A stretch of DNA of 24,000 bases from Luoshenia tenuis. GTDB taxonomy: Bacteria; Bacillota; Clostridia; Christensenellales; GCA-900066905. Every line of letters begins with the position of its first letter. Position 1 is the stretch's first letter. A program made the position numbers and the translations under genes. A model generated the notes under the pieces. That model made no database searches, had not been told where the DNA came from, and worked only from the letters and a program-made list of their open reading frames with translations. The stretch covers positions 416,040-440,039 of the forward strand of contig NZ_JACRSO010000003.1 in NCBI RefSeq assembly GCF_014384745.1, given 5' to 3'. Shown piece by piece: positions 691 through 17,401 of this stretch.

Positions 691-1620
691 ATGATGAAAA
701 AGCTATACAGGATCGCCGCGATCGTACTGGCCCTGGGGCTGGTGCTGAGCTTTTGCGGCGTAGCGGCGGCCGGGTTCGACTTTGAGAAGCTGGGCACGCA
801 GCTGGAGTATGAGCAGCGCACCTTCTCCGCCCAGCCGCAAGGGGTGAGCGCGCTTTCCATCTCGGTGACGAACGAGCCGGTGCGGATCATCCCCTCCGAG
901 GATGGGCAGATCCACATCACCTACTGGGAGACCGAGTTCGACCACTATAACGTGACGCAGGAGGGCGGCCTGATCAGCTGCAATTACTGGGACAGCCGGG
1001 CCTGGTACGATCACATCATGGTGCTGAATTTTTCCTTTACCCCGCATGAAGTGACGGTGGCCCTGCCCGAAGGGGTAACGCTGAAGGCCAGCGTGCGCAA
1101 CGTCAACGGCCCGGTGGAGGCCGAGGGCGTAACGCTCAATACGCTCAGCGCCAGCACCGTCAATGGACGGATCAGCCTGAGGGATGTGCAGGCCCAGGGC
1201 GAGATCAGCCTTGTGAACACCAATGGCGGGATCGATGGCTCGGCCGTGAGGGCGGGCGCGTTTACCGCGACGACCCAAAACGGCGCGGTGGACCTGGCGG
1301 GCCTGGAGAGCGGCGAGGGCGCGGCGGCGCGCAGCGTCAACGGCCCGGTCAGCCTTGTAGACTGCCGGGTGGGCGGTTTGACGGCGGAGAGCATGAACGG
1401 CCGCATCGACTTAAGCCGGGTGCGCGCGCAGGGCAATGTATCGCTGACTACGGTGAACGGCCCGATCGGCGGCACGCTGATCGGCGAGCAGGCGGAGTAC
1501 GCTGTGAGCACCTCCACCGTAAACGGGGGCAGCAGCCTGCCCAACTCCGTGGGCGGGGAATGGGAACTGATGGCCCGCTCCACCAACGGCGGGATCGACC
1601 TGAGGTTTGTCGAGCGATAG
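691..1620 (+). CDS. DUF4097 family beta-strand repeat protein (putative adhesin/LiaG-like)
   Basis: ORF 598-1620, with preferred ATG at 691, 1 nt after the upstream TAA. It has an N-terminal anchor or signal MMKKLYRIAAIVLALGLVLSFCGVAAA. The body is a run of NG-containing repeats (VNGPVE, VNGRISL, TNGGIDG, QNGAVDL, VNGPVSL, MNGRIDL, VNGPIGG, VNGGSSL, TNGGIDL), typical of DUF4097. Confidence 0.8.
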   Translation: MMKKLYRIAAIVLALGLVLSFCGVAAAGFDFEKLGTQLEYEQRTFSAQPQGVSALSISVTNEPVRIIPSEDGQIHITYWETEFDHYNVTQEGGLISCNYWDSRAWYDHIMVLNFSFTPHEVTVALPEGVTLKASVRNVNGPVEAEGVTLNTLSASTVNGRISLRDVQAQGEISLVNTNGGIDGSAVRAGAFTATTQNGAVDLAGLESGEGAAARSVNGPVSLVDCRVGGLTAESMNGRIDLSRVRAQGNVSLTTVNGPIGGTLIGEQAEYAVSTSTVNGGSSLPNSVGGEWELMARSTNGGIDLRFVER

Positions 1621-3181: not shown

Positions 3182-3237
3182 AATAGGGTAGACGGGGTGT
3201 AAAGCCCCGAGAGAGAAAAAAGAGGGGGAAAAGAAAA

Positions 3238-4086
3238 ATGGCACTTGTCACCATGAATTTTGAAAGCCAGTACCTGATGGTCAACCACGAGGTCAGCGTG
3301 ATCCTTCCCGACAAGCCACGGGAACAATCCCCTGCCGATTTTTACGGCAGCGGCAAAAAGTACCCGGTGCTTTGGCTGCTGCACGGCACCTTTGGGGACC
3401 ACAGCGACTGGCTGCGAAAGAGCATGATCGAGCTGTACGCCTGCGAGAACGACCTGATCGTGGTGATGCCCAGCGCGCTCAACAGCAATTACATGAACTG
3501 GAAGGGCTTTGGCACCGGCTTCTTTATGGAGGATTACCTCATCAAAGAATTGATGCCGCTGATCTATAACTGGTTCCCGGCCTCGGACAGCAAAGAGGAC
3601 AACTTTATCGCCGGCCTCTCCATGGGCGGGGGCGGCACGATGCAGTATGCCTGCGCCTACCCGGAGCACTTTGCCGGGGCAGCCATCCTCTCGGCCGGGC
3701 CGATGGATTACAAGGCGCTTTTCGCCTGCCAACCGGGGGAGGAGGGCGACCCGTTTATGACCCGGTTCCGCGGGCGGGTGCAGACCCAGGTAGACCAGCT
3801 GGGCGGGCTGGACGCGTTTTTGGACAGCGCCTGCAACCCCTGGGATAAGCTGCCCGGGCTGATTGAAAAGGGGACGCTGCCCCGGCTGTATTTCGCCATC
3901 GGCAGGGAGGACTTTGGCTACCAGAACTACCTGAAGTTTAAAGATTATGCCGGCAAGATCGGGCTGGAGGCGACCTTTGAGGAGTTTGACGGATACGAGC
4001 ACGAGTGGCGCTTTTGGGACTTGACCATCCAGCGGGCACTCAAGTTCTTCGGCTTTGACTCTCGGGACGCGGGCAATCCCTTTTAA
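3238..4086 (+). CDS. Esterase family protein (alpha/beta hydrolase, putative esterase/CE1-like), copy 1
   Basis: 282-aa ORF with a G-rich RBS (agagggggaaaag) upstream. It carries the nucleophile elbow GLSMGGGG and an HGTFGDHSDW oxyanion-region motif. It is paralogous to 21891-22742. Confidence 0.9.
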   Translation: MALVTMNFESQYLMVNHEVSVILPDKPREQSPADFYGSGKKYPVLWLLHGTFGDHSDWLRKSMIELYACENDLIVVMPSALNSNYMNWKGFGTGFFMEDYLIKELMPLIYNWFPASDSKEDNFIAGLSMGGGGTMQYACAYPEHFAGAAILSAGPMDYKALFACQPGEEGDPFMTRFRGRVQTQVDQLGGLDAFLDSACNPWDKLPGLIEKGTLPRLYFAIGREDFGYQNYLKFKDYAGKIGLEATFEEFDGYEHEWRFWDLTIQRALKFFGFDSRDAGNPF

Positions 4087-4098
4087 GGGCAGGGGACG

Positions 4099-4881: not shown

Positions 4882-7149
4882 CTATCCTTCCACCTCAAAG
4901 TCCTCCGCTTTGAGCAGCGGGCTTAGCTCCCCGGTGCAGTAGCAGTACAGCCGGTGCAGGGGACGGGTCATGGTCACGTAGAGCAGGCGCGCGTCCAGAT
5001 CGCTGCCCGGGTAGCGCCCGGCGCTGACATCCGGGATGAGCACTGCGTCAAACTCCAGCCCCTTGGCCAGCGGGGCAGACACCACCATCACCCCGCCGGC
5101 ATAGTGGGTATCCTTGGGGGTGAGCCGCTGTACCGGTTGGCCCAGCGCCTTTTGCAGGGCGCGGTGCAGCGGGCGGCACTCGTTTTCATCCCGGGCGATG
5201 ACGGCGATGGTGCGGTACCCCTCATCCAGCAGGCGCTGGATACGGGCGGCCAGCGCCCCGCCAAGCGCCCGGGGTTTGACGAAGAAAAGCGCCGGGGCCT
5301 CCCCATGGCGCAGCACGGGCTGGGCCGCCACCATGCCGGGATAGGGCCGGCGGGCGCAGACCGTGCCCGCCAGGCGCATGATCTCCACCGTAGAGCGGTA
5401 GCTGGTGGTCAGCCCCAAAAAGGCGGGCGCGGGGTCGGAGAATACGGCGGACAGGTCCTCGCGCCAGGCGGTGGTGCCCCGGTAGGCGCGGATGCCCTGG
5501 GCCAGATCCCCAACCAGGGTGAAGGAGCTGTTGCCCGCCAGGGTGCGCAGCAGGTCAAACTGGAAGGGCGAAAAATCCTGCGCCTCGTCCACCACGGTAT
5601 GGCGGATAGCCATCTCCTCGTGCAGGCCGTAGAGATAGCGGCGGATCAGCACCAGGGCGGGCAGATCCTCCTCGGCGGCGCGCCCGGCCTGAAGCGCGGG
5701 CAGGGCTACCCGCGAAAGGGCGGCCCAGGCTTGCGGATCGATCCCCTGCGGCACGGGGCCGGAGAGAAAGGCGATATAGGCATCCATCACCCGGGGTGGG
5801 GTGAGCGCCGCGGCGGCCGCAGCGGGATAGACCCGGATCTGCTCGCGCAGGGCATGAACGGCCTGATCCCGCTGGGCGTAGATGCGCTGCATAGCGGCCC
5901 GGCGCTGGGGGCTGTCCTCCGGGGAGGTGCGGCGCAGCAGCAGCGCCATGGCGGCGGCCCGCTCCTCCCGCGCGGCGATCAGCGCCCCCAGCATCTCGCT
6001 TACCCGGCGGCGCAGGGGTTTTTTCAGCTCCTCCATCCGCCGCTTAAGGGGGAAGGGTTTGAGGTCCTGAAGATAGAGCCTTAGCACCTCCTCACCCGAG
6101 AGCACGGTCTGCCCCTCCAGCGTAAAGCCCTCCTTAGGCGGCAGGCTGCGTTCTACCTGCTCCAAGTAGCGCGCCACCGCGTCCCGGAAGGCCAGCGTGC
6201 CCCGCAGGCGGGCCGCCAAGGCCAGATCCTGCTTTTGCGCCTGGGGCGCGGCGGGGTCCAGCAGGGTAAAGAGCGGGTCCTCGGTTTGCAGGCGGGGCAT
6301 ATCCTTGCCCAGCAGGCGGGCACATAGCTGGGGGAATGTCCACTGGCGCACCTGGTCCACGCCCAGCTCCGGCAGAACGGCGGAGATATAGTCCAAAAAC
6401 AGGGGGCTGGGGGCCAGGATCAGCATCTGCGAAGGGGCCAGCTCCCCCCGGTGGACGTATAAAAGGTAGGCGATGCGGTGCAGGGCGATGGTGGTTTTTC
6501 CGCTGCCGGCGGCGCCCTGCACCACCACCGGGCCGCGCAGCGGGGCGCGGATGATGTCGTTCTGCTCGCGCTGGATGGTGGAGACGATGTCTTTAAGCCG
6601 GTCGTCCTTGCTCTGGCCCAGCACGTTTTGCAGGTAGGCGTCCTGCGCCACCACGTCGGTATCAAAGATGGTTTGCAACTGGCCGTCCTGTATGGTCATC
6701 AACCGCTTAAGGCTAAGTTCCCCTTCGATCTCCCCATCCGGCGCCCGGTAGGAGACCTGGCCCAGCTGCCCGGCGTAGTACAGGTTGGCCAGCGGCGCGC
6801 GCCAGTCGATCACCCAGGGGGTCTGGGTGCGGCTGTCCAGCACCCCGGCCTTGCCGATATAGTAGGCGGTAGGGGCGGTTTCGCCGCTCTGGGTAAAATC
6901 CACACGGGTAAAATAGGGGGCCTTTGCGGCCAGCTGCAGGTTGTGGAGGGCCTGGGACGTCATGCGGTATTGCAATTCGTGCAGCATCAGGGCCGCACCC
7001 TCGCCGCTGCGGCGGCGGGTATCCTCCAGCGCCTCCCGGCGCTCGCGCTCCTCCTCGCGGGCCAGGCCGGTCTCCCGGGCGATGAGGGAGAGGGTTTTTT
7101 GCAGGTGCGCCTGCTCCTGCGGATATGCGGGATGATCTTGCAAAGACAT
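4882..7149 (-). CDS. helD: HelD-type UvrD-like helicase (RNA polymerase recycling ATPase, helicase IV family)
   Basis: ORF 4882-7332, with preferred ATG at 7149 preceded by AAGGAGGG. It has an N-terminal coiled-coil followed by PYFTRVDF, Walker A GAAGSGKTT, and a DEAQD-like VVDEAQDFSPFQF. The C-terminal UvrD_C motifs are AKGLEFDAVLI and LLYVTMTRPLHRL. Confidence 0.85.
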   Translation of the reverse strand: MSLQDHPAYPQEQAHLQKTLSLIARETGLAREEERERREALEDTRRRSGEGAALMLHELQYRMTSQALHNLQLAAKAPYFTRVDFTQSGETAPTAYYIGKAGVLDSRTQTPWVIDWRAPLANLYYAGQLGQVSYRAPDGEIEGELSLKRLMTIQDGQLQTIFDTDVVAQDAYLQNVLGQSKDDRLKDIVSTIQREQNDIIRAPLRGPVVVQGAAGSGKTTIALHRIAYLLYVHRGELAPSQMLILAPSPLFLDYISAVLPELGVDQVRQWTFPQLCARLLGKDMPRLQTEDPLFTLLDPAAPQAQKQDLALAARLRGTLAFRDAVARYLEQVERSLPPKEGFTLEGQTVLSGEEVLRLYLQDLKPFPLKRRMEELKKPLRRRVSEMLGALIAAREERAAAMALLLRRTSPEDSPQRRAAMQRIYAQRDQAVHALREQIRVYPAAAAAALTPPRVMDAYIAFLSGPVPQGIDPQAWAALSRVALPALQAGRAAEEDLPALVLIRRYLYGLHEEMAIRHTVVDEAQDFSPFQFDLLRTLAGNSSFTLVGDLAQGIRAYRGTTAWREDLSAVFSDPAPAFLGLTTSYRSTVEIMRLAGTVCARRPYPGMVAAQPVLRHGEAPALFFVKPRALGGALAARIQRLLDEGYRTIAVIARDENECRPLHRALQKALGQPVQRLTPKDTHYAGGVMVVSAPLAKGLEFDAVLIPDVSAGRYPGSDLDARLLYVTMTRPLHRLYCYCTGELSPLLKAEDFEVEG

Positions 7150-7661: not shown

Positions 7662-7722
7662 CATCTCTCCCTCCGGCGCACCCAACGGGTGCGCCACCTC
7701 CCTCGTCAAAGGGAGGCAAGTG
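7662..7722 (-). repeat. 61-nt double-hairpin element (type C), minus orientation
   Basis: The reverse complement, cacttgcctccctttgacgagggaggtggcgcacccgttgggtgcgccggagggagagatg, is near-identical to 14712-14772. It contains two stems: cctccct/agggagg and ggcgcaccc/gggtgcgcc. Confidence 0.75.
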
Positions 7723-7757
7723 GGGGTTAAATCAAAGGGCATAGCATTCCTCTCTCT

Positions 7758-7913
7758 GTCATTCCGAGCATAAGCGAGGAATCTCCTGATCTCCTGAGCA
7801 GCCCCGCCCGCACCGCGTAGCACAGGGGCCACCCCTGCCGCGCAGGTTCAGCGCCGCTTTCCTGCCTATGCCCTGAGATTCTTCACTTCGGCTTCGCCTT
7901 CGTTCTGAATGAC
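7758..7913 (+). repeat. MITE/REP-like unit, copy 2
   Basis: The A-arm is gtcattccgagcataagcgaggaatctc (7758-7785). The B-arm is gagattcttcacttcggcttcgccttcgttctgaatgac (7875-7913), nearly identical to the B-arm at 14919-14957. Confidence 0.75.
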
Positions 7914-7965
7914 AGGCTTGCGCATAAACCTATCCTTTCCCGCGCAGATTATCGTTTCTAATTCT

Positions 7966-8090
7966 GTCATTCCGAAGCCGTAAGCGAGGAATCTCTTTAC
8001 GCCCTGTTGGCCTTGCCTGCATCACGTAGCCATAGGTCAAACACTGCTTTCTCGCCCATGCACGAGATTCTTCGCTCCCTCTGAATGGCA
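7966..8090 (+). repeat. MITE/REP-like unit, copy 3
   Basis: The A-arm is gtcattccgaagccgtaagcgaggaatctc (7966-7995). The B-arm is gagattcttcgctccctctgaatggca (8064-8090). The internal segment (..ttac..tggcct..cctgcatc..) resembles copy 4 at 14822-14957. Confidence 0.75.
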
Positions 8091-13038: not shown

Positions 13039-13169
13039 GTCTTTCTGAGTGCAGCGAGGAATTTCGAGGGAAGACCGCTGGGAAGGTTTTTCCACAGGCG
13101 CTGTGGGGAGGCGGAGCGGGGCATGTGACGCGAGAGATTCTTCGCGGTGCCTGCGGGCTCTTCAATGAC
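13039..13169 (+). repeat. MITE/REP-like unit, copy 5 (left flank of the yjdF cassette)
   Basis: The degenerate A-arm is gtctttctgagtgcagcgaggaatttc. The core is ..accgctgggaagg..ggcgctgtggggaggcggagcggggcatgtgacgcg.. and the B-arm is gagattcttcgcggtgcctgcgggctcttcaatgac. It is a direct repeat of 13905-14038. Confidence 0.7.
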
Positions 13170-13239
13170 GGGGAAAGGCTATGCGTACTTACGCGACATA
13201 TGCCCCGCTTACACGGCGGGGAAAGGATATAAAGATTGA

Positions 13240-13388
13240 AAGAGGTGCTTGAACAGAAGAAAACAAGCTGATCTTACGCAAAGGGGAAAACACAGTCCCG
13301 GTTGGTAGTCCGGGCGCGGCTTCAAGCAAGCTGCCAGTAACCTGCCTCCTTGGTTGTCCACCCTTTGCGGTTTAAAATAAAGGAGGAA
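13240..13388 (+). promoter_or_regulatory. Structured 5' leader of yjdF; candidate yjdF-motif (azaaromatic) riboswitch with an SD-sequestering helix
   Basis: The leader sits directly upstream of a YjdF-family gene, which is the defining context of the yjdF motif. An 8-bp long-range pair joins tgcttgaa (13246-13253) and ttcaagca (13321-13328). There is a hairpin cccgg/ccggg at 13297-13314. An anti-SD cctcctt (13345-13351) is perfectly complementary to the SD aaggagg (13380-13386). I could not compare it with the Rfam consensus from memory. Confidence 0.4.
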
Positions 13389-13811
13389 ATGATGGAACAG
13401 GTAAAAGCGACGCTGACGGTGCTGTTTGAGGACCCTTTTTGGGTGGGCGTGTATGAGCGGGAGAGCGGCGGGCGCTATGGCGCCTGTAAGCTGACCTTTG
13501 GCGCGGAGCCCAGGGACTATGAGGTGTATGCCGCCCTGCTGCAAAACTGGGAGCGTTTGGAACCGGGACAGGAAATGGCCGCGCAGGCGGCAGCGCAAAG
13601 GCGGATCAACCCCAAACGGATGCAGCGGGCCGCCCGGCGGCAGATGCAGGACGCGGGCGTGGGCACCCGGGCCCAGCAGGCGCTGAAGTTGCAACAGGCG
13701 GCGGGGAAGCTGGCCCGACGCAGGCGGACCCGCGAAGAGCGGGAGCGGGAGGCGCGGCGGCAGTTTGCCCTGCGCCAGCAGCGCAAAAAAGATAAGCACA
13801 AAGGGCACTGA
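13389..13811 (+). CDS. yjdF: YjdF family protein (DUF2992)
   Basis: ORF 13350-13811, with preferred ATG at 13389 just after AAGGAGG. The product is MMEQVKATLTVLFEDPFWVGVYERESGGRYGACKLTFGAEPRDYEVY..., followed by a very basic K/R-rich tail, as recalled for DUF2992/YjdF. Confidence 0.85.
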   Translation: MMEQVKATLTVLFEDPFWVGVYERESGGRYGACKLTFGAEPRDYEVYAALLQNWERLEPGQEMAAQAAAQRRINPKRMQRAARRQMQDAGVGTRAQQALKLQQAAGKLARRRRTREEREREARRQFALRQQRKKDKHKGH

Positions 13812-13832
13812 GGCAGCGCGAAACAAAACGGG

Positions 13833-13867
13833 AGCCGGCCGGATCGAGCGATCTGGCCGGCTTTTTA
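13833..13867 (+). terminator. Intrinsic terminator of yjdF
   Basis: agccggcc (13833-13840) pairs with ggccggct (13855-13862), with an inner GATC/GATC pairing, followed by a T-run reading ctttttat. Confidence 0.85.
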
Positions 13868-13904
13868 TGAAGTGGAACCCGCAAAATAAAGGCTGAAACC
13901 GTGC

Positions 13905-14038
13905 TGCGCACAGATGGATTTTGTCGCGCGGGAGAAGCGACCGCTGGGACGGGCGTTTCCATGGCGCTGTGGGGAGGCGGGGCGGGGCAGGTAACGCAGG
14001 AGATTCTTCGCAGGCCTGCGGCCTTGCGTTTCAATGAC
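13905..14038 (+). repeat. MITE/REP-like unit, copy 6 (right flank of the yjdF cassette)
   Basis: ..accgctgggacgggcgtttccatggcgctgtggggaggcggggcggggcaggtaacgcaggagattcttcgcaggcctgcggccttgcgtttcaatgac is collinear with 13073-13169, with scattered mismatches of all types. Confidence 0.7.
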
Positions 14039-14121
14039 AAGGAAAGGGCGAGGTGCAATGGGGGAATGAGTGAAGGTTTTTCAGTCCGGTTCGAGCGGGA
14101 AGATATAGATGGAAGGGTATA

Positions 14122-14705
14122 GGTTTTCGTTCAGTAGAGAACCAAGGCATAATGCGAAATAGGGAGGAAAGTTAGGGAACGTGTTTTATATGTTAAGGGA
14201 GCGCGGAACGAACGCCGCCGGTGGAAATCTATAGTGCCCGCGCCCGGTGGGCGATGAAGGGCACGATGATTTCTGTGAGCGTAAGTTGAGGGCAAGTGCC
14301 CTTTGGCACGAAGGCCGAAACCTCAGCGAACAGAGGTGGCCCCAGAGATGGTCCCGGTAAGTGAGTGCAGCGCTCTGTGAGCATGAGACAAGGGCGAGCG
14401 GACAACGTGCCGCGAAGCCTGCGTCCATAGCGAACAGAGGGGGCGTAAGCAGGGGGATTCCGATTTCCCCCTTTAGGCTAAAGCCCCTCTGTTCACTGTG
14501 GGTTTGCCCATCGCGGCGTGCCGGCCGCTCGGGCGCACCTCACGTTCACAGAAATCATCGCGCCCTTTTCCCGCCACTGGCGGCGGGCGCTATAGATTTC
14601 CCCAAACGGCCACTCCGAGGTGGGGACGGAGGTTTTTCAAACCCTCCGATGCTGATGAACCAATTAATTTTCCAGCCGTTTCGCTTATGTTATGCCTTTT
14701 GACTT
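14122..14705. repeat. ~580-bp imperfect palindrome made of nested hairpin modules (function unknown)
   Basis: Matching inverted blocks are 14144-14159 / 14679-14698. A second pair is 14223-14234 (ggaaatctatag) / 14590-14601. A third pair is 14264-14278 (cgatgatttctgtga) / 14546-14560. A fourth pair is 14325-14336 / 14486-14494. There is also a perfect 11-bp central stem, gaacagagggg (14432-14442) / cccctctgttc (14484-14494). A ~70-nt module occurs three times. Confidence 0.7.
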
Positions 14706-14711
14706 AATCCA

Positions 14712-14772
14712 CACTTGCCTCCCTCTGACGAGGGAGGTGGCGCACCCAAAGGGTGCGCCGGAGGGAGAGATG
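14712..14772 (+). repeat. 61-nt double-hairpin element (type C), plus orientation
   Basis: cacttgcctccctctgacgagggaggtggcgcacccaaagggtgcgccggagggagagatg. The stems are cctccctc/gagggagg and ggcgcaccc/gggtgcgcc. This is the inverted twin of 7662-7722. Confidence 0.75.
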
Positions 14773-14821
14773 ACGCCGAGCGAAAACCCATAGGTTTATG
14801 CGCAGGCAGCAGGCTACCCTT

Positions 14822-14957
14822 GTCATTCCGAGCGTAAGCGAGGAATCTCGTTACAACCTCTCGCTTGTGGCCTGCATCCTCGCAGTCCCGATAAAGCGCC
14901 TCTTTCCAGCTACGCCATCAGATTCTTCACTCCGGCTTCGCCTTCGTTCTGAATGAC
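14822..14957 (+). repeat. MITE/REP-like unit, copy 4
   Basis: The A-arm is gtcattccgagcgtaagcgaggaatctc with a GTAA loop. The B-arm is cagattcttcactccggcttcgccttcgttctgaatgac. Confidence 0.8.
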
Positions 14958-14986
14958 ACACTTGCGTATAAAGGTATACTATATTT

Positions 14987-15012
14987 GTCATTCCAAGAGC
15001 AGCGAGGAATCC
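14987..15012 (+). repeat. Solo A-arm hairpin
   Basis: gtcattccaagagcagcgaggaatcc has no matching B-arm before the GH3 terminator. Confidence 0.55.
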
Positions 15013-15103
15013 TGAAGGTTAGCCGCTGAGGGTAGCTTGCGCTCGGTCGCGGTGGAGTTGGATAGAGCGCTGTTGCTAAAGCGGGAGGGGGCCCTGGCAA
15101 AGG

Positions 15104-15133
15104 CAAAGCCCCCGCACGTTGGCGGGGGCTTTG
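15104..15133 (-). terminator. Hairpin terminator downstream of the GH3 gene
   Basis: A 12-bp GC-rich stem, caaagcccccgc (15104-15115) / gcgggggctttg (15122-15133), lies 15 nt beyond the stop at 15149. The minus-strand tail cctttgcc is only weakly T-rich. Confidence 0.6.
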
Positions 15134-15148
15134 GCGAATCTTTTGGCG

Positions 15149-17401
15149 TCAGCCGCCCAGGGCGGCGTTCATCTTGTCGATCAGGCCGCGCAGACGGTCG
15201 TTATCAAAATCAGCGCCCACAAAGCTGCGGACCGAGCGCAGCGGCAGGTTGAGCATCACGTGCAGCATCATATCGTCCTTAGCCTTTTCGTCCTCCAGGT
15301 CCAGGTCGGGCATCATCTGCCCCAGCAGCTTTTTGGCGGCCGGGCCGGTGCGCGGGTCGGCCAGCAGGTCGCCCACGGTCCAGTTCTCGTGCACCTGTAC
15401 GGGAGCTTGGGCGGGATTTTGGAATCGCACCTGGCCGGTCAAGCGGATATCCCGGGAGGAGGCGCCCACTAAAATCTCAAACGTACCATCGGCCGCGCGC
15501 CAGGCATGGCTTTCCACATCGTAAAAGGCAAAGGCGCGCATATCAAGGGTCAGGGTCACTTCCTTTTCTTCGCCTGGCTGCAGGGTTACCTTGGCAAAGC
15601 CGCGCAGCTCTTTATCCGGCCGCAGGGCCGCGCCGGTGCAGTCCCGCACGTAGAGCTGGACGATCTCCTTGCCCGGGCGGGAGCCAGTGTTTTTCACCTT
15701 GAGGCGGCAGGTCAGGGTATCGTCCGGGCCCAGGGTATCGGCGCTTAAGCAAAGATCGCTGTAGGCGAACTGGGTGTAGCTTAGGCCAAAGCCAAAGGGG
15801 AAGCGCACCGGCATCTTTTTACTGTCGTAATACCGGTAGCCCACAAACACGCCCTCCCGGTATTCCACGGTATCCTTGACGCCGGGGAAGTTGAGGTAAG
15901 AGGGGTTATCCTCCAAGCGCAGGGGGAAGGTCTCGGCCAGCTTGCCGCAGGGGCTGCAATCGCCAAAGAGCAGGTCCACCGTGGCGGCGCCCACGGCCTG
16001 CCCGCCCAGATACCCTTCCAGCAGGGCGTTGACCTGATCGATCCAAGGGGTCTCCACCGGCGAACCGTTGTACAGCACCACCACCGTATTGGGCTGGGCC
16101 GCGGCCACGGCCTCGATCAAGGCGTTATGGCTCTGGGGCATGCGCATGTGCGTGCGGTCATACCCCTCGGACTCAAAGGCGTCCGGAAGGCCGGCGAACA
16201 CCACGGCCACATCCGCCGCCTTTGCCACGGATACGGCTTGCGCAATCAGCGCCGGGTCGGGCGTTTCCCCCTCCAAAGAATAGCCGGGGGCATAAGTTAC
16301 GTTGAAGCGCCCCTGGGCCGCCTCCAGCGCGCCGGTCACCTTGGTGGCGTTGATGTGGGAGCTGCCGCCCCCCTGGTAGCGAGGCGTTTTAGCAAACGCG
16401 CCGATAAAGGCCACCTTTTGCTCCTTGGCGATGGGCAGGGCGCCCTGGTTTTTCAGCAGCACCATGCTCTCCCTGGCCACCTTGCGGGCCAGCTGGTTTT
16501 GCGCATCCAGATCGCAAACGGTGGGCTTGTGATTTTGCAGGTAGCGCAGGGTGATGTTTAAGATGCGCTCCACCGCCCGGTCCAGCACGGCCTCGTCCAG
16601 CCGCCCTTCGCGCACGGCGCGCACGATCTCCCGGTCGTTCACCCCGCCGCTGGCGGGCATCTCCAGCTCCAGCCCGGCTTTCAGGCCCTTGACCCGGTCG
16701 TTGCAGGCGCCCCAGTCGGTCATCGCATAGCCCTCAAAGCCCCATTCATCCCGCAGCACATCGGTGAGCAGCCACTTGTTCTCGGAGGCAAATTCGCCAT
16801 TGATGCGGTTATACGAGCACATCACCGTCCAGGGCTGGGCCTTTTTTACCGCCCGCTCAAAGGCGGGGAAGTAGATCTCCCGCAGGGTGCGCTCATCCAC
16901 CTGGGAAGAGGAGGTCATCCGCCGGTACTCCTGGTTGTTGGCGGCAAAGTGCTTCAGGCTGGTGCCCACATTTTGGCTTTGCACGCCCCGGATGTGGGCG
17001 GCGGCCATCTCGCCGGCCAGGCAGGGATCCTCAGAGAAGTACTCAAAATTGCGTCCGCACAGCGGGCTGCGCTTGATGTTGACCGCCGGGCCCAGCAGCA
17101 CGCTGACGTCCTCGGCCTGGCACATCTGCCCCAGGGCCGCGCCCATTTCCTCCAGAAGGGCGGTATCAAAAGAGCAGGCCGTGGCCGAGGCCGCCGGGAA
17201 GCAGACCGCCGGCACGCTGAGCTTCAGGCCCAGATGATCCGCCTCGGAGGCCTGCTTGCGCAGCCCGTGGGGCCCGTCGCACACCATCACGCCGGGCAGG
17301 CCGAGCCGCTGCACCGATTTGAGATGCCAAAAATCCTCCCCGGAGCACAGGCCCGCCTTTTCCTCCAGGGTGAGTTGGGAGATGATCTCTTTTACCGTCA
17401 T
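15149..17401 (-). CDS. Glycoside hydrolase family 3 beta-glucosidase (BglX-like) with C-terminal Fn3-like domain
   Basis: 750 aa. The N-terminus is LTLEEKAGLCSGEDFW, with KHFAANNQE. The catalytic nucleophile context is GFEGYAMTDWGA. The C-terminal part carries FPFGFGLSYTQFAYSDL. The RBS GAAAGGAG lies upstream. Confidence 0.9.
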   Translation of the reverse strand: MTVKEIISQLTLEEKAGLCSGEDFWHLKSVQRLGLPGVMVCDGPHGLRKQASEADHLGLKLSVPAVCFPAASATACSFDTALLEEMGAALGQMCQAEDVSVLLGPAVNIKRSPLCGRNFEYFSEDPCLAGEMAAAHIRGVQSQNVGTSLKHFAANNQEYRRMTSSSQVDERTLREIYFPAFERAVKKAQPWTVMCSYNRINGEFASENKWLLTDVLRDEWGFEGYAMTDWGACNDRVKGLKAGLELEMPASGGVNDREIVRAVREGRLDEAVLDRAVERILNITLRYLQNHKPTVCDLDAQNQLARKVARESMVLLKNQGALPIAKEQKVAFIGAFAKTPRYQGGGSSHINATKVTGALEAAQGRFNVTYAPGYSLEGETPDPALIAQAVSVAKAADVAVVFAGLPDAFESEGYDRTHMRMPQSHNALIEAVAAAQPNTVVVLYNGSPVETPWIDQVNALLEGYLGGQAVGAATVDLLFGDCSPCGKLAETFPLRLEDNPSYLNFPGVKDTVEYREGVFVGYRYYDSKKMPVRFPFGFGLSYTQFAYSDLCLSADTLGPDDTLTCRLKVKNTGSRPGKEIVQLYVRDCTGAALRPDKELRGFAKVTLQPGEEKEVTLTLDMRAFAFYDVESHAWRAADGTFEILVGASSRDIRLTGQVRFQNPAQAPVQVHENWTVGDLLADPRTGPAAKKLLGQMMPDLDLEDEKAKDDMMLHVMLNLPLRSVRSFVGADFDNDRLRGLIDKMNAALGG

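Follow-up and report, generated by a model that had tools for sequence, protein, structure and literature searches.

Several groups of multicopy structured intergenic repeats are known in bacteria, such as REP/BIME, BOX, Correia and bcr; of these, the BOX elements are modular, with the organisation A-B(n)-C. A different situation is represented by 3'ETS-leuZ of E. coli, a small RNA derived from a spacer of a stable-RNA operon. Integrative elements at the 3' ends of tRNA and tmRNA genes form a third group, characterized by duplication of the att site and by Williams-type sublocations. Finally, ROOL and GOLLD are orphan structured RNAs of Firmicutes-rich environments, 580-800 nt in length. They often reside near tRNA genes and are possibly co-transcribed with them (PMC5737381). 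Drum RNA was dropped as a tRNA-adjacent parallel, as such placement is not stated in its source paper.

The window considered here is a stretch of 24 kb from the genome of Luoshenia tenuis. An imperfect hairpin of about 600 nt is predicted for approximately 14100-14745 on both strands. The folding energies of 14100-14720 are -300.6 kcal/mol (plus strand) and -274.8 kcal/mol (minus strand), compared to about -220 and -208 for shuffled sequences, yielding z = -10.5 and -10.4, respectively. A reading made from the sequence only had described a palindrome built of hairpin modules, and its four inverted block pairs were all found in place, as were three copies of a module of about 70 nt and a perfect 11-bp match GAACAGAGGGG/CCCCTCTGTTC between modules, involving positions 14432-14442. 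A repeat search yields inverted arms 14214-14301/14523-14610 (88 nt, 74% complementary) and a second pair 14309-14336/14486-14513. In the global alignment of the left and right arms 162 of 217 positions are identical, and the left arm contains an extra module. Three matches to the module pattern in the window compare with 0.00 expected from shuffles, and the folds of the modules, about 67 nt each, support the suggestion that each can fold on itself. Both ORFs overlapping the palindrome (14186-14428 and 14361-14702) have no Pfam match, and look-ups of the exact proteins give no called gene on record. The interpretation of the region as non-coding is supported. The 2.1-kb gap around the palindrome indeed contains the yjdF gene, together with a riboswitch. 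No tRNA or tmRNA genes occur anywhere in the window.

The palindrome probably consists of two diverged, facing copies of one structured element, which would act as a transcribed RNA and spread by duplication. The left copy occupies approximately 14144-14446 on the plus strand and carries an extra tandem hairpin H2, and the right copy occupies approximately 14741-14443 on the minus strand (Table 1).

Table 1. Features of the palindrome and its flanks, in window coordinates.
Feature	Position	Strand	Evidence
yjdF/azaaromatic riboswitch RF01764	13274-13377		Rfam, 81.7 bits; sole family passing in 24 kb
DUF2992 (yjdF) gene	13389-13811	+	Pfam
Left outer hairpin GGTTTTC-N8-GAGAACC, base of left arm	14122-14143	+	sequence; fold of left arm alone
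Left unit 5' extension (AAGGCATAATGCGAAA ... GGGAGCGCGGAACGAAC), homologous to 14698-14611 of the minus strand	14144-14213	+	arm alignments
Motif copy 1, full length	14214-14342	+	cmsearch, model R1: 100.2 bits, E 2e-22; module z -2.5
Copy 1, P1 (GAAATC with GATTTC)	14224-14229 with 14268-14273	+	
Copy 1, H1	14235-14263	+	
Copy 1, H2 (first module)	14272-14336	+	
Motif copy 2, partial, with degenerate H1	14352-14446	+	cmsearch: 52.2 bits; module z -4.3
Copy 2, extra H2 (second module)	14374-14440	+	
Central hairpin AGGGGGA-N8-TCCCCCT, common to both convergent units	14451-14472	.	sequence; both arm folds
Motif copy 3 (right arm)	14480-14610	-	cmsearch: 94.1 bits, E 7e-21; module z -4.0
Copy 3, H2 (third module)	14552-14486	-	
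Copy 3, H1	14589-14561	-	
Right unit 5' extension	14611-14698	-	arm alignments
Right unit outer end, with hairpin CCTCCCTC-TGAC-GAGGGAGG at 14719-14738	14699-14741	-	BLAST of L054 against window
Neighbouring hairpin GGCGCACCC-AAA-GGGTGCGCC and flank	14740-14772	.	window self-BLAST

The three motif copies are the only matches of the covariance model R1 in the window. Copy 2 is a tandem duplicate with a period of 102-104 nt (direct repeats D1/D2). When the left arm is folded alone, its 5' extension pairs with the sequence 3' of the first H2, forming a closing helix. The central hairpin was not called in the terminator scan; it is followed by TTTAGG on the plus strand only, and thus would be a weak terminator at best. 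The right arm is 85% identical to positions 6840-7099 of L054, a homologous locus from another metagenome, and in the BLAST comparison this homology ends at 14741. We infer that TGGTTCATCAGCATCGGAGGGTTTGAA (14661-14635, minus strand) within the right 5' extension may correspond to the reverse complement of a tRNA 3' end; it resembles the anti-T-arm segments opening tRNA- or tmRNA-adjacent units in three other loci (L025, L029, L050). The outermost hairpins of the two arms, 14122-14143 and 14719-14738, are unrelated. The segments 14687-14739 and 14740-14772 recur in inverted orientation at 7662-7747 (self-BLAST, 86 nt, 89.5% identity), and thus 14740-14772 represents a repeat module of its own. 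Between its genes, this genome is a mosaic of several small hairpin repeats.

The core of the unit, about 125 nt, consists of the helix P1 enclosing H1 and of the adjacent H2, both hairpins being GA-rich. H1 has an internal loop of tandem G-A, an asymmetric loop (G/AUGAA), and a tip of 5 bp that ends in a 3-nt loop. The base of H2 is UCUGU/ACAGA, its three internal loops are rich in G-A and its tip is variable; GG follows the hairpin, and GNRA tetraloops occur at 7 of 31 H2 tips. As the search for homologues required an exact match to a pattern on this base, its invariance is partly an ascertainment effect. Covariation was analyzed in 38 distinct sequences at 28 modelled pairs, with the model R1 built from relatives. 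Pairing is observed in 93.1% of the paired cells, compared to 71.8% in shuffled alignments and 33-40% with slid partners. Double changes occur at 23 of the 28 pairs, and the covariation score of 0.495 (0.145 in shuffled data) is reached in none of 500 shuffles. The MAFFT-only alignment agrees (92.1% versus 72.5% paired, score 0.512 versus 0.163), the slid controls give 33-42% over the analyses taken together, and RNAalifold reports compensatory changes at 19 of the 28 pairs. Thus compensatory changes exceed both the shuffled and the slid controls. Among the paired cells there are 37 G-U or U-G wobbles versus 11 A-C or C-A mismatches, an asymmetry to which no exact probability is assigned, as the sequences are related. 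The modules fold better when read in the TCTGTGAGC orientation. Each copy folds on its own strand, and the compensatory conservation extends across several lineages of Clostridia/Bacillota. With compensated helices, strand asymmetry and a consistent orientation, the element looks, as far as sequence can tell, like a structured non-coding RNA.

The family comprises about 45 sites in MAGs of Clostridia/Bacillota and in metagenomes, a range limited by the exact-pattern collection; the hosts of the homologues are uncultured MAGs or metagenome contigs. Most members are single units or head-to-tail tandem arrays, the latter sometimes spacer-less (L008, L001). The MAG SUG1366 contains at least 13 near-identical copies, many of them at contig ends; the element is indeed a member of a repeated family. 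The SUG1366 elements are imperfect palindromes of 650-900 bp, and thus the inverted organisation may not be accidental.

The copies lie downstream of the neighbouring gene and in the same orientation, very often inside stable-RNA operons. The observed arrangements, all with the motif in sense, are 23S-motif-5S-tRNA (L049, L013), two motifs followed by 5S (L040), 16S-three motifs-tRNA-Ala-motif-tRNA-Ile-23S (L044), a motif followed by 23S (L053), tmRNA followed by a motif (L025), and tRNA followed by a motif (L022, L027, L029, L050). Near stable-RNA genes the sense orientation is seen in 10 of 11 loci, the exception (L030) adjoining RNase P RNA. Other sites are 3' of protein genes. Of the features lying closest upstream within 1 kb, 20 share the strand of the motif and 7 are on the opposite one (21 versus 6 after a spurious antisense ORF is replaced by the Pfam-supported DUF2992 gene), whereas the downstream features (16 versus 12) have no orientation bias. 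Terminator-like sites are not more common downstream (8 of 26 copies) than upstream (9 of 26), and the order gene-motif-terminator was therefore dropped as a general rule. In some stand-alone copies a -10-like box precedes the unit, and terminators flank it at either end. In three loci (L026, L009, L001) the stop codon of the preceding gene falls in GGA-UAR of P1; this is not a rule either, since in L015 dnaJ stops 11 nt earlier.

The junctions of the units with adjacent genes have several recurrent features. All 5' junctions that were read follow GG (the preceding letters being CAGCTGG, CCGGTGG, CCAGTGG or ACAGAGG). In L025 (CGACTCCCCTCGCCTCCACCA), L029 (CCGGGCACACCAAAATAAAAGCCGCCT) and L031 the 3' end of the adjoining tmRNA or tRNA is repeated, in direct orientation, behind the unit, and an inverted copy of the same T-arm is found at the other end of these units. 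Full units open with a segment antisense to the T-arm and to the acceptor 3' strand of the tRNA or tmRNA next to them, and close by repeating its 3' end in direct orientation (...CCA). In other cases the first 8-19 nt of the downstream 5S rRNA or tRNA stand fused in front of the copy.

In the window, yjdF (plus strand) and the GH3 gene (minus strand) are convergent and one motif copy lies 3' of each, which explains why the copies face each other. As the facing copies are homologous, the 600-nt hairpin would have arisen as a by-product and would not be the functional fold. Evidence against transcription of the window copies comes from their position, beyond the predicted terminators of yjdF (13833-13862, followed by a T run) and of GH3 (15104-15133), and from the promoter scan, which finds no sigma-70 sites for either copy.

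Searches did not assign the element to a described family. In the window, only RF01764 passes the gathering score of Rfam 15 and the palindrome is unmatched; at E<=10, the region 13800-15200 gives only chance-level miRNA or terminator-like matches. No family was found for the canonical copy in L032, and no family match overlaps the motif in 37 loci. The Rfam searches exclude ROOL, GOLLD, OLE, raiA, HEARO, IS605-orfB and group II introns, as well as the hammerhead, SRP, 5S and tRNA models. Resemblances to a K-turn, a hammerhead (CUGAUGA...GAAA), a tRNA cloverleaf and 5S rRNA were also considered by eye and rejected, the defining elements or model support being missing. A blastn search of plasmids and phages with the element (word size 11) gave no match. 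In IMG/VR the strict pattern has no matches and the relaxed pattern has 30, none of them confirmed by the covariance model; thus the element does not seem to be phage-borne, and in contrast to ROOL and GOLLD no association with prophages was found. The motif also differs from these RNAs in size, with 125-330 nt per unit, and has no similarity to their Rfam models.

The motif resembles the repeats of the REP/BIME, pneumococcal BOX, Neisseria Correia and Bacillus cereus bcr types: it is short, ORF-less, hairpin-forming, multicopy and modular, and the combination of H1 with H2 and an extra H2 parallels the A-B(n)-C organisation. It shares with such repeats the location at gene flanks, often between convergent genes, the probable co-transcription with the neighbours, the direct and inverted arrangements, and the tendency to break short-read assemblies. 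However, its core is larger and more ornate (at least 28 covarying pairs, conserved G-A loops), it occurs in several MAG lineages rather than in one species, it strongly prefers operons of stable RNAs (rRNA, tRNA, tmRNA), and neither terminal inverted repeats nor target duplications were found. Like the 3'ETS-leuZ-type RNAs, it resides in spacers of tRNA and rRNA operons, from which the maturation nucleases would release it; but those RNAs are short and single-copy, have little structure and act through base pairing, whereas the motif is a structured twin hairpin found also after protein genes or alone. The 3'-end repeat and the tandem stacking, which resembles att-site accretion, are reminiscent of integrative elements at tRNA and tmRNA genes. 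On the other hand, the unit is only about 250-330 bp long and has an inverted T-arm at its other end; no integrase was seen among the Pfam families listed for ORFs near the copies, and the window copy has no tRNA nearby.

The sequence-only reading had proposed a single structured RNA of about 580 nt with mutually exclusive folds. As a regulatory or ornate RNA in which the hairpin between the arms and the alternative pairings form a switch, this appears extremely improbable. The predicted stability is indeed extreme on either strand, and CCCCTCTGTTC does have alternative partners. However, the strands fold about equally, as those of any DNA inverted repeat would, and the mismatches between the arms (13 G-U versus 11 A-C) carry no strand signal. 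The arms are 70-75% identical overall, with 88 of 126 core positions the same (30% differ). Of the 28 modelled pairs compared between the arms, 21 are identical, none has a single-sided change and 7 have double changes, all of which retain pairing within the arm and break it between the arms. Since the differences are double and pair-preserving, selection seems to maintain the hairpins of each arm and not the giant hairpin; indeed, H1 and H2 persist in the minimum-energy folds computed for the arms individually (z = -3.3 and -4.8). The homologues mostly lack the partner arm, the Rfam models of large RNAs are unmatched, and the alternative partners of the right-hand stem simply reflect the homology of the three modules. 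Another possibility, also unlikely though less remote, is that the whole palindrome of about 640 bp is a non-autonomous, MITE-like foldback transposon, with the arms as inverted repeats and the transposase encoded elsewhere. Same-strain contigs from four other samples, 100% identical to the window, end in this region at 14123 (L037), 14159, 14237 and 14719 (L035), as at a repeat or a presence/absence variant; together with the SUG1366 copies, these stops suggest that the element is mobile or variable as DNA. Moreover, a related right arm lies in different flanking DNA in L054, and the outer 55 nt of the right arm recur inverted with their flank. On the other hand, where the arms differ the changes are compensated within each arm, the right arm resembles L054 more than it does its partner (85% versus 72-75%), the family consists mostly of units not arranged as palindromes, and the window contains no further motif copy. 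Instead of short terminal inverted repeats, which were not found, there is arm-wide complementarity (about 250 nt at 70-75%), and no target-site duplication was seen around 14094-14123 and 14719-14772, with the ends known to about 30 nt. No transposase, integrase or reverse transcriptase is present among the 25 commonest Pfam families listed for 82 ORFs within 2.5 kb in 34 loci, a scan in which families seen in a single ORF may be unlisted, nor among the scanned window ORFs, which encode metabolic enzymes, a helicase and a transporter. No empty site was found via GH3 relatives: there is only one 97% cluster, whose contig ends 128 nt past the gene, in a neighbouring repeat, and the next relatives are 65% identical. 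Thus the present evidence is against an ordinary MITE.

It is quite unlikely, and less likely than a foldback transposon, that the unit is a single-stranded DNA element of the IS200/IS605-derived (PATE) or REP/RAYT kind, mobilized in trans by a Y1 HUH transposase, with the two hairpins as its left-end and right-end structures and insertion 3' of a short target ending in GG. Such elements would account for two adjacent imperfect hairpins with neither terminal inverted repeats nor target duplications, for the GG at every 5' junction read, for the unit end ...ACAGAGG (the left and right cleavage sites of IS200/IS605 resemble each other), and for the BIME-like intergenic mosaics of small hairpin repeats. 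Tolerance of G-T on one strand fits a top-strand substrate, and wobbles of the G-U type, as well as covariation, would equally survive in a hairpin used as single-stranded DNA. However, tnpA, tnpB and RAYT are absent from the 25 commonest Pfam families listed (82 ORFs), no copy has an ORF between its two hairpins, and the Rfam IS605-orfB and HEARO models are unmatched. The opposite copies in the window, about 130 nt apart, each match their own upstream gene, which fits a bias linked to transcription rather than to the replication strand. The divergent paralogues in several lineages are unlike species-specific REPs, and the spacer-less head-to-tail arrays would be atypical.

The element is thus most likely, on the sequence evidence, a co-transcribed or processed structured RNA spreading by duplication. 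We infer that it acts as RNA: it would be transcribed with the upstream gene or just after it, and the invariant bases and G-A loops could form a surface recognized by a protein or another RNA. It might then be freed by the RNases maturing rRNA and tRNA and accumulate as a small RNA, or it might serve in cis as a processing or stability module. New copies would arise by duplication or recombination.

If so, some uncultured Clostridia of gut and digester communities would carry a structured RNA module that is unclassified, shows unusually clear covariation and multiplies within genomes. Its sites, in rRNA spacers and at tRNA and tmRNA flanks, would belong to the operons that the cell transcribes most strongly. 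RNA biology would gain a new orphan motif whose consensus is defined and whose many natural variants could serve in probing, pull-down and structural work; for genome annotation, the module would account for one class of long palindromes between genes, as well as for breaks in the assemblies of these lineages. The duplicated ends of flanking tRNA, tmRNA and 5S genes raise the testable question of how the module moves. One can speculate, at a fairly low probability, that the family is a novel kind of structured RNA, mobile or duplicative, which specifically colonises stable-RNA operons and could capture the ends of stable RNAs at the level of RNA or of recombination. Bacteria would then possess a counterpart of SINE-like or tRNA-end-mimicking elements, its maturation being carried out by RNase P, RNase Z or the CCA-adding enzyme. 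The element might also be an abundant new small RNA produced in step with rRNA.

The four inverted block pairs, three modules and two ORFs that the sequence-only reading had described in the palindrome between the sulfatase and GH3 genes were all found where it had placed them. The pattern TCTGTGARC-N35-65-AGYGAACAGAGG matches the window three times, where shuffles predict 0.00. The region 14100-14720 is predicted to fold into an imperfect hairpin of about 600 nt on either strand (-300.6 and -274.8 kcal/mol; shuffles about -220 and -208; z -10.5 and -10.4). The left arm and the reverse-complemented right arm are identical at 162 of 217 positions, with one extra module in the left arm. Neither ORF has a Pfam match or occurs in the records of called genes. 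The neighbouring genes are also as described earlier: a sulfatase gene, the yjdF riboswitch with a DUF2992 gene, and a convergent GH3 gene. A 111-nt direct repeat (13073-13178 and 13939-14047, 81% identical) flanks the entire yjdF cassette, that is, the riboswitch, the DUF2992 gene and its terminator; insertion or duplication of the cassette as a whole may lie behind this arrangement.

Homologues were collected using the conserved ends of the module as a pattern. The search yielded 34 loci from species-representative genomes, of which about 28 are true relatives, and 18 loci from metagenomes, about 10 of them true. The hosts are MAGs labelled Clostridia, Clostridiales, Christensenellales/-aceae or Bacillota, unlabelled metagenome contigs, and one Burkholderiales-labelled MAG, MAG137 (JBLNCA01). 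The latter carries five diverged copies (loci L014, L015, L025, L027, L028), and all remaining labelled hosts are Clostridia/Bacillota; its label could be mistaken, or the family broader than it appears. In the alignment of flanks, conservation reaches upstream of the module into a second hairpin. The common core of about 123 nt consists of GG, helix P1 around hairpin H1, hairpin H2 (the module) directly after it, and a closing GG. H1 within P1 reads CGAGC-G-CUGCC-AGU-GGCAG-AUGAA-GCGAG; its lower stem contains a tandem G-A pair. H2 has a UCUGU/ACAGA base, a GA/GA loop, two more G-A-rich internal loops and a variable tip, and the same four-helix hairpin is predicted for all three modules despite their differing inner sequences. 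RNAalifold predicts 28 pairs, with compensatory changes in 19. A covariance model built from the relatives, R1, has three matches in the palindrome (see the table) and no further match in the window, including an unfiltered search of the repeat-rich spacer at 7.3-8.6 kb.

Positions and arrangements of features in the window and at loci of other genomes and metagenomes (handles beginning with L)
Feature	Sequence	Position	Strand	Remark
Module 1	window	14272-14336	+	~67 nt
Module 2	window	14374-14440	+	~67 nt
Module 3	window	14486-14552	-	~67 nt
R1 match	window	14214-14342	+	100.2 bits
R1 match	window	14480-14610	-	94.1 bits
R1 match	window	14352-14446	+	52.2 bits; essentially an extra H2
Azaaromatic (yjdF) riboswitch	window	13274-13377		upstream of DUF2992 gene
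GH3 gene	window		-	convergent with yjdF (+)
Second hairpin repeat	window	14820-14849, 14985-15011, 7747-7785, 7965-7996		
Second hairpin repeat, variant	window	14911-14958, 7874-7917, 8064-8090, 13997-14039		
Contig end, left	L037; L058; L059	14123; 14159; 14237		window positions
Contig end, right	L035	14719		window position
Motif in operon	L049, L013		sense	23S-motif-5S-tRNA
Motif in operon	L040		sense	two motifs, then 5S-tRNA
Motif in operon	L044		sense	16S-three tandem motifs-tRNA-Ala-motif-tRNA-Ile-23S
Motif in operon	L053		sense	motif, then 23S
Motif beside gene	L025		sense	tmRNA, then motif
Motif beside gene	L022, L027, L029, L050		sense	tRNA(s), then motif
Stop codon in P1	L026	1012-1017		
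Stop codon in P1	L009	about 4996-5001		
Stop codon in P1	L001	about 691-696		
tRNA/tmRNA-adjacent unit	L025	140-410		end helix GGAGUCG/CGACUCC
tRNA/tmRNA-adjacent unit	L029	150-420		
tRNA/tmRNA-adjacent unit	L050	870-1160		
tRNA/tmRNA-adjacent units	L031	1-480		two in tandem; end helix GGAUUUG/CAAAUCC
Unit end helix	L042			16-bp helix
rRNA-operon units	L044	3650-4400		
rRNA-operon units	L040	4200-4679		
rRNA-operon units	L049	3040-3360		L013 alike

The twin-hairpin fold is conserved and belongs to a defined strand. In 38 distinct R1 matches, which are related sequences, so that the figures give no exact probability, standard pairs fill 93.1% of cells, versus 71.8% in column shuffles and 33-40% with partners slid by 1-3 columns. 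Two-sided changes occur in 23 of the 28 pairs, and the covariation score is 0.495 versus 0.145 in shuffles; none of 500 shuffles matches the observed value, whatever the measure. A MAFFT alignment, not fitted to the model, agrees (92.1% versus 72.5% paired; score 0.512 versus 0.163). Part of the near-invariance of the H2 base helix stems from the way homologues were collected; copies found only by the model show compensated variation in it (e.g. 7242-7367 of L034). As to the strand, paired cells of these related sequences hold 37 G-U/U-G against 11 A-C/C-A combinations, single modules fold better in the TCTGTGAGC orientation, and 7 of 31 H2 tips are GNRA tetraloops.

We reject the single large structured RNA proposed earlier. 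At the 28 modelled pairs the two window arms are identical in 21 and differ by two-sided changes in seven, all of which keep pairing; there are no one-sided changes. Thus substitutions at paired positions have kept the hairpin of each arm and weakened pairing between the arms, whose cores share only 88 of 126 positions. H1 and H2 persist when either arm is folded by itself (z -3.3 and -4.8), and mismatches between the arms favour neither strand (13 would read as G-U on the plus strand, 11 on the minus strand). The right arm is 85% identical to the metagenome copy L054, whose flanking DNA is unrelated, versus 72-75% to the left arm. The arms are therefore separate paralogues, and their origin by recent local inverted duplication was rejected. 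The "mutually exclusive partners" of the sequence-only reading, like the giant hairpin, are explained by the proximity of three homologous modules.

Stable-RNA genes at the loci were annotated with Rfam and ARAGORN. Unexpectedly, the motif resides in stable-RNA transcripts, being found on the sense strand within or beside their operons (see the table). Other copies closely follow protein genes. In three loci the stop codon (UAG/UAA) of the upstream ORF lies within the first bases of P1 (GGAUAA or GAAUAG), and dnaJ of L015 ends 11 nt short of P1. The motif is usually co-oriented with upstream genes: of 40 copies or arrays, 20 share the strand of the closest feature up to 1 kb upstream and seven lie opposite to it, or 21 to 6 once the Pfam-supported DUF2992 gene replaces a spurious antisense ORF at the left window copy. 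Downstream features of the same set have no orientation bias (16 to 12). yjdF shares its orientation with the left copy and GH3 with the right one; the two copies face each other because these genes converge. Both copies lie past the terminators of their genes, and a promoter scan called no sigma-70 promoter-like site. No tRNA was found in the window, despite a stretch resembling an inverted tRNA 3' end in the right arm (14661-14635).

Stand-alone units of about 210-330 nt have 5' and 3' ends that pair with each other, and their inner helix covaries (ACGCGCC/GGCGCGU, CCCGCC/GGCGGG, UUGCC/GGCAA). Where the neighbour is a tRNA or tmRNA gene, the 5' end repeats that gene's T-arm and acceptor 3' strand in inverted orientation (15/15 nt in L050, 16/16 in L029), and the 3' end can directly repeat the neighbour's 3' end through CCA (L025, L029, L031). 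These units have terminators on either side and a -10-like box upstream. In rRNA operons, each motif is preceded by a duplicated leader together with the start of the gene downstream, either 8 nt of 5S or 19 nt of the tRNA, the latter reaching G18-G19 of the D-loop; the units are tandemly repeated, with a period of 148 nt in L044. At every junction read, the motif begins directly after GG.

The motif is multicopy. The MAG SUG1366 has at least 13 copies, about 95% identical over 500-900 bp, many at contig ends; two that are complete (L030 3131-4038, L021 6691-7352) form imperfect palindromes in which a single arm carries the motif. In L023 both arms carry it, in diverging orientations. MAG137 has at least five diverged copies in differing contexts. 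Head-to-tail arrays occur in L001 (four copies), L044 and L031, and L008 has two same-strand copies in tandem plus a convergent one. Contigs that other samples yielded for the window's strain match the window at 100% identity as far as they reach, and their ends (see the table) indicate that no short-read assembly crosses the palindrome. Independent assemblies of the strain and of a 97% relative all break at or in the palindrome or in adjacent repeats, even though no exact inverted match exceeds 15 nt, which suggests further copies or population variation. L054 ends at the equivalent of 14483, and L091, the relative, about 128 nt after the GH3 stop.

A second short hairpin repeat, GTCATTCCGAGC(G/A)TAAGCGAGGAATC, with a variant GAGATTCTTC..TTCGTTCTGAATGACA, fills the spacer at 7.4-8.1 kb as well as those flanking the palindrome; it also adjoins motif copies in another genome (L008). 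Positions 7662-7747 are an inverted 86-nt copy (89.5%) of 14772-14687, comprising the outer end of the right arm and the small hairpins GGCGCACCC..GGGTGCGCC and CCTCCCTC..GAGGGAGG. What follows this copy at 7.7 kb is the second repeat family and not the motif; the intergenic regions of this genome are thus mosaics of exchangeable modules. An inverted pair of ~870-bp segments with 82% identity (3223-4088 and 22757-21889, about 18 kb apart) is probably two paralogous genes of ~282 aa.

The captured RNA ends could result from site-specific recombination at att-like sites, from unequal crossing-over at short GG-ended homologies, or from an RNA-mediated process. Another possibility is that the motif would be a single-stranded-DNA substrate of an HUH transposase, which is expected to leave similar covariation. 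The window copies are oppositely oriented about 130 nt apart and each matches its own gene, which favours transcription over the replication strand as the cause of the orientation bias. The 25 commonest Pfam families, the only ones listed for 82 copy-adjacent ORFs, include no transposase, integrase or reverse transcriptase, none was found among the scanned window ORFs, and IMG/VR, the phage collection and the plasmid collection gave no true matches. We favour, with some reserve, an element that acts as RNA. It would be co-transcribed or transcribed separately, then set free or kept in place by the machinery that matures rRNA and tRNA; a recognition surface may be provided by the invariant bases together with the G-A loops, and the element would multiply by duplication or recombination. 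Against this reading stand the location of both window copies past the terminators of their genes and the lack of a called promoter-like site.

In behaviour the closest systems are the multicopy structured intergenic repeats REP/BIME, BOX, Correia and bcr, and by genomic position spacer-derived small RNAs. ROOL and GOLLD share proximity to tRNA genes (PMC5737381), but have no sequence or structure similarity to the motif. The earlier suggestion of a new non-autonomous element stands in part, at the level of the family, although transposon hallmarks were not found. Since the tests made gave no Rfam match, no MITE hallmarks such as short terminal inverted repeats, and no transposase or integrase partner among the families listed, the motif is classed as a dispersed structured intergenic element, or orphan ncRNA motif, outside the named families. 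The evidence points to an unclassified, well-supported family of structured motifs with an unusual link to stable-RNA operons.
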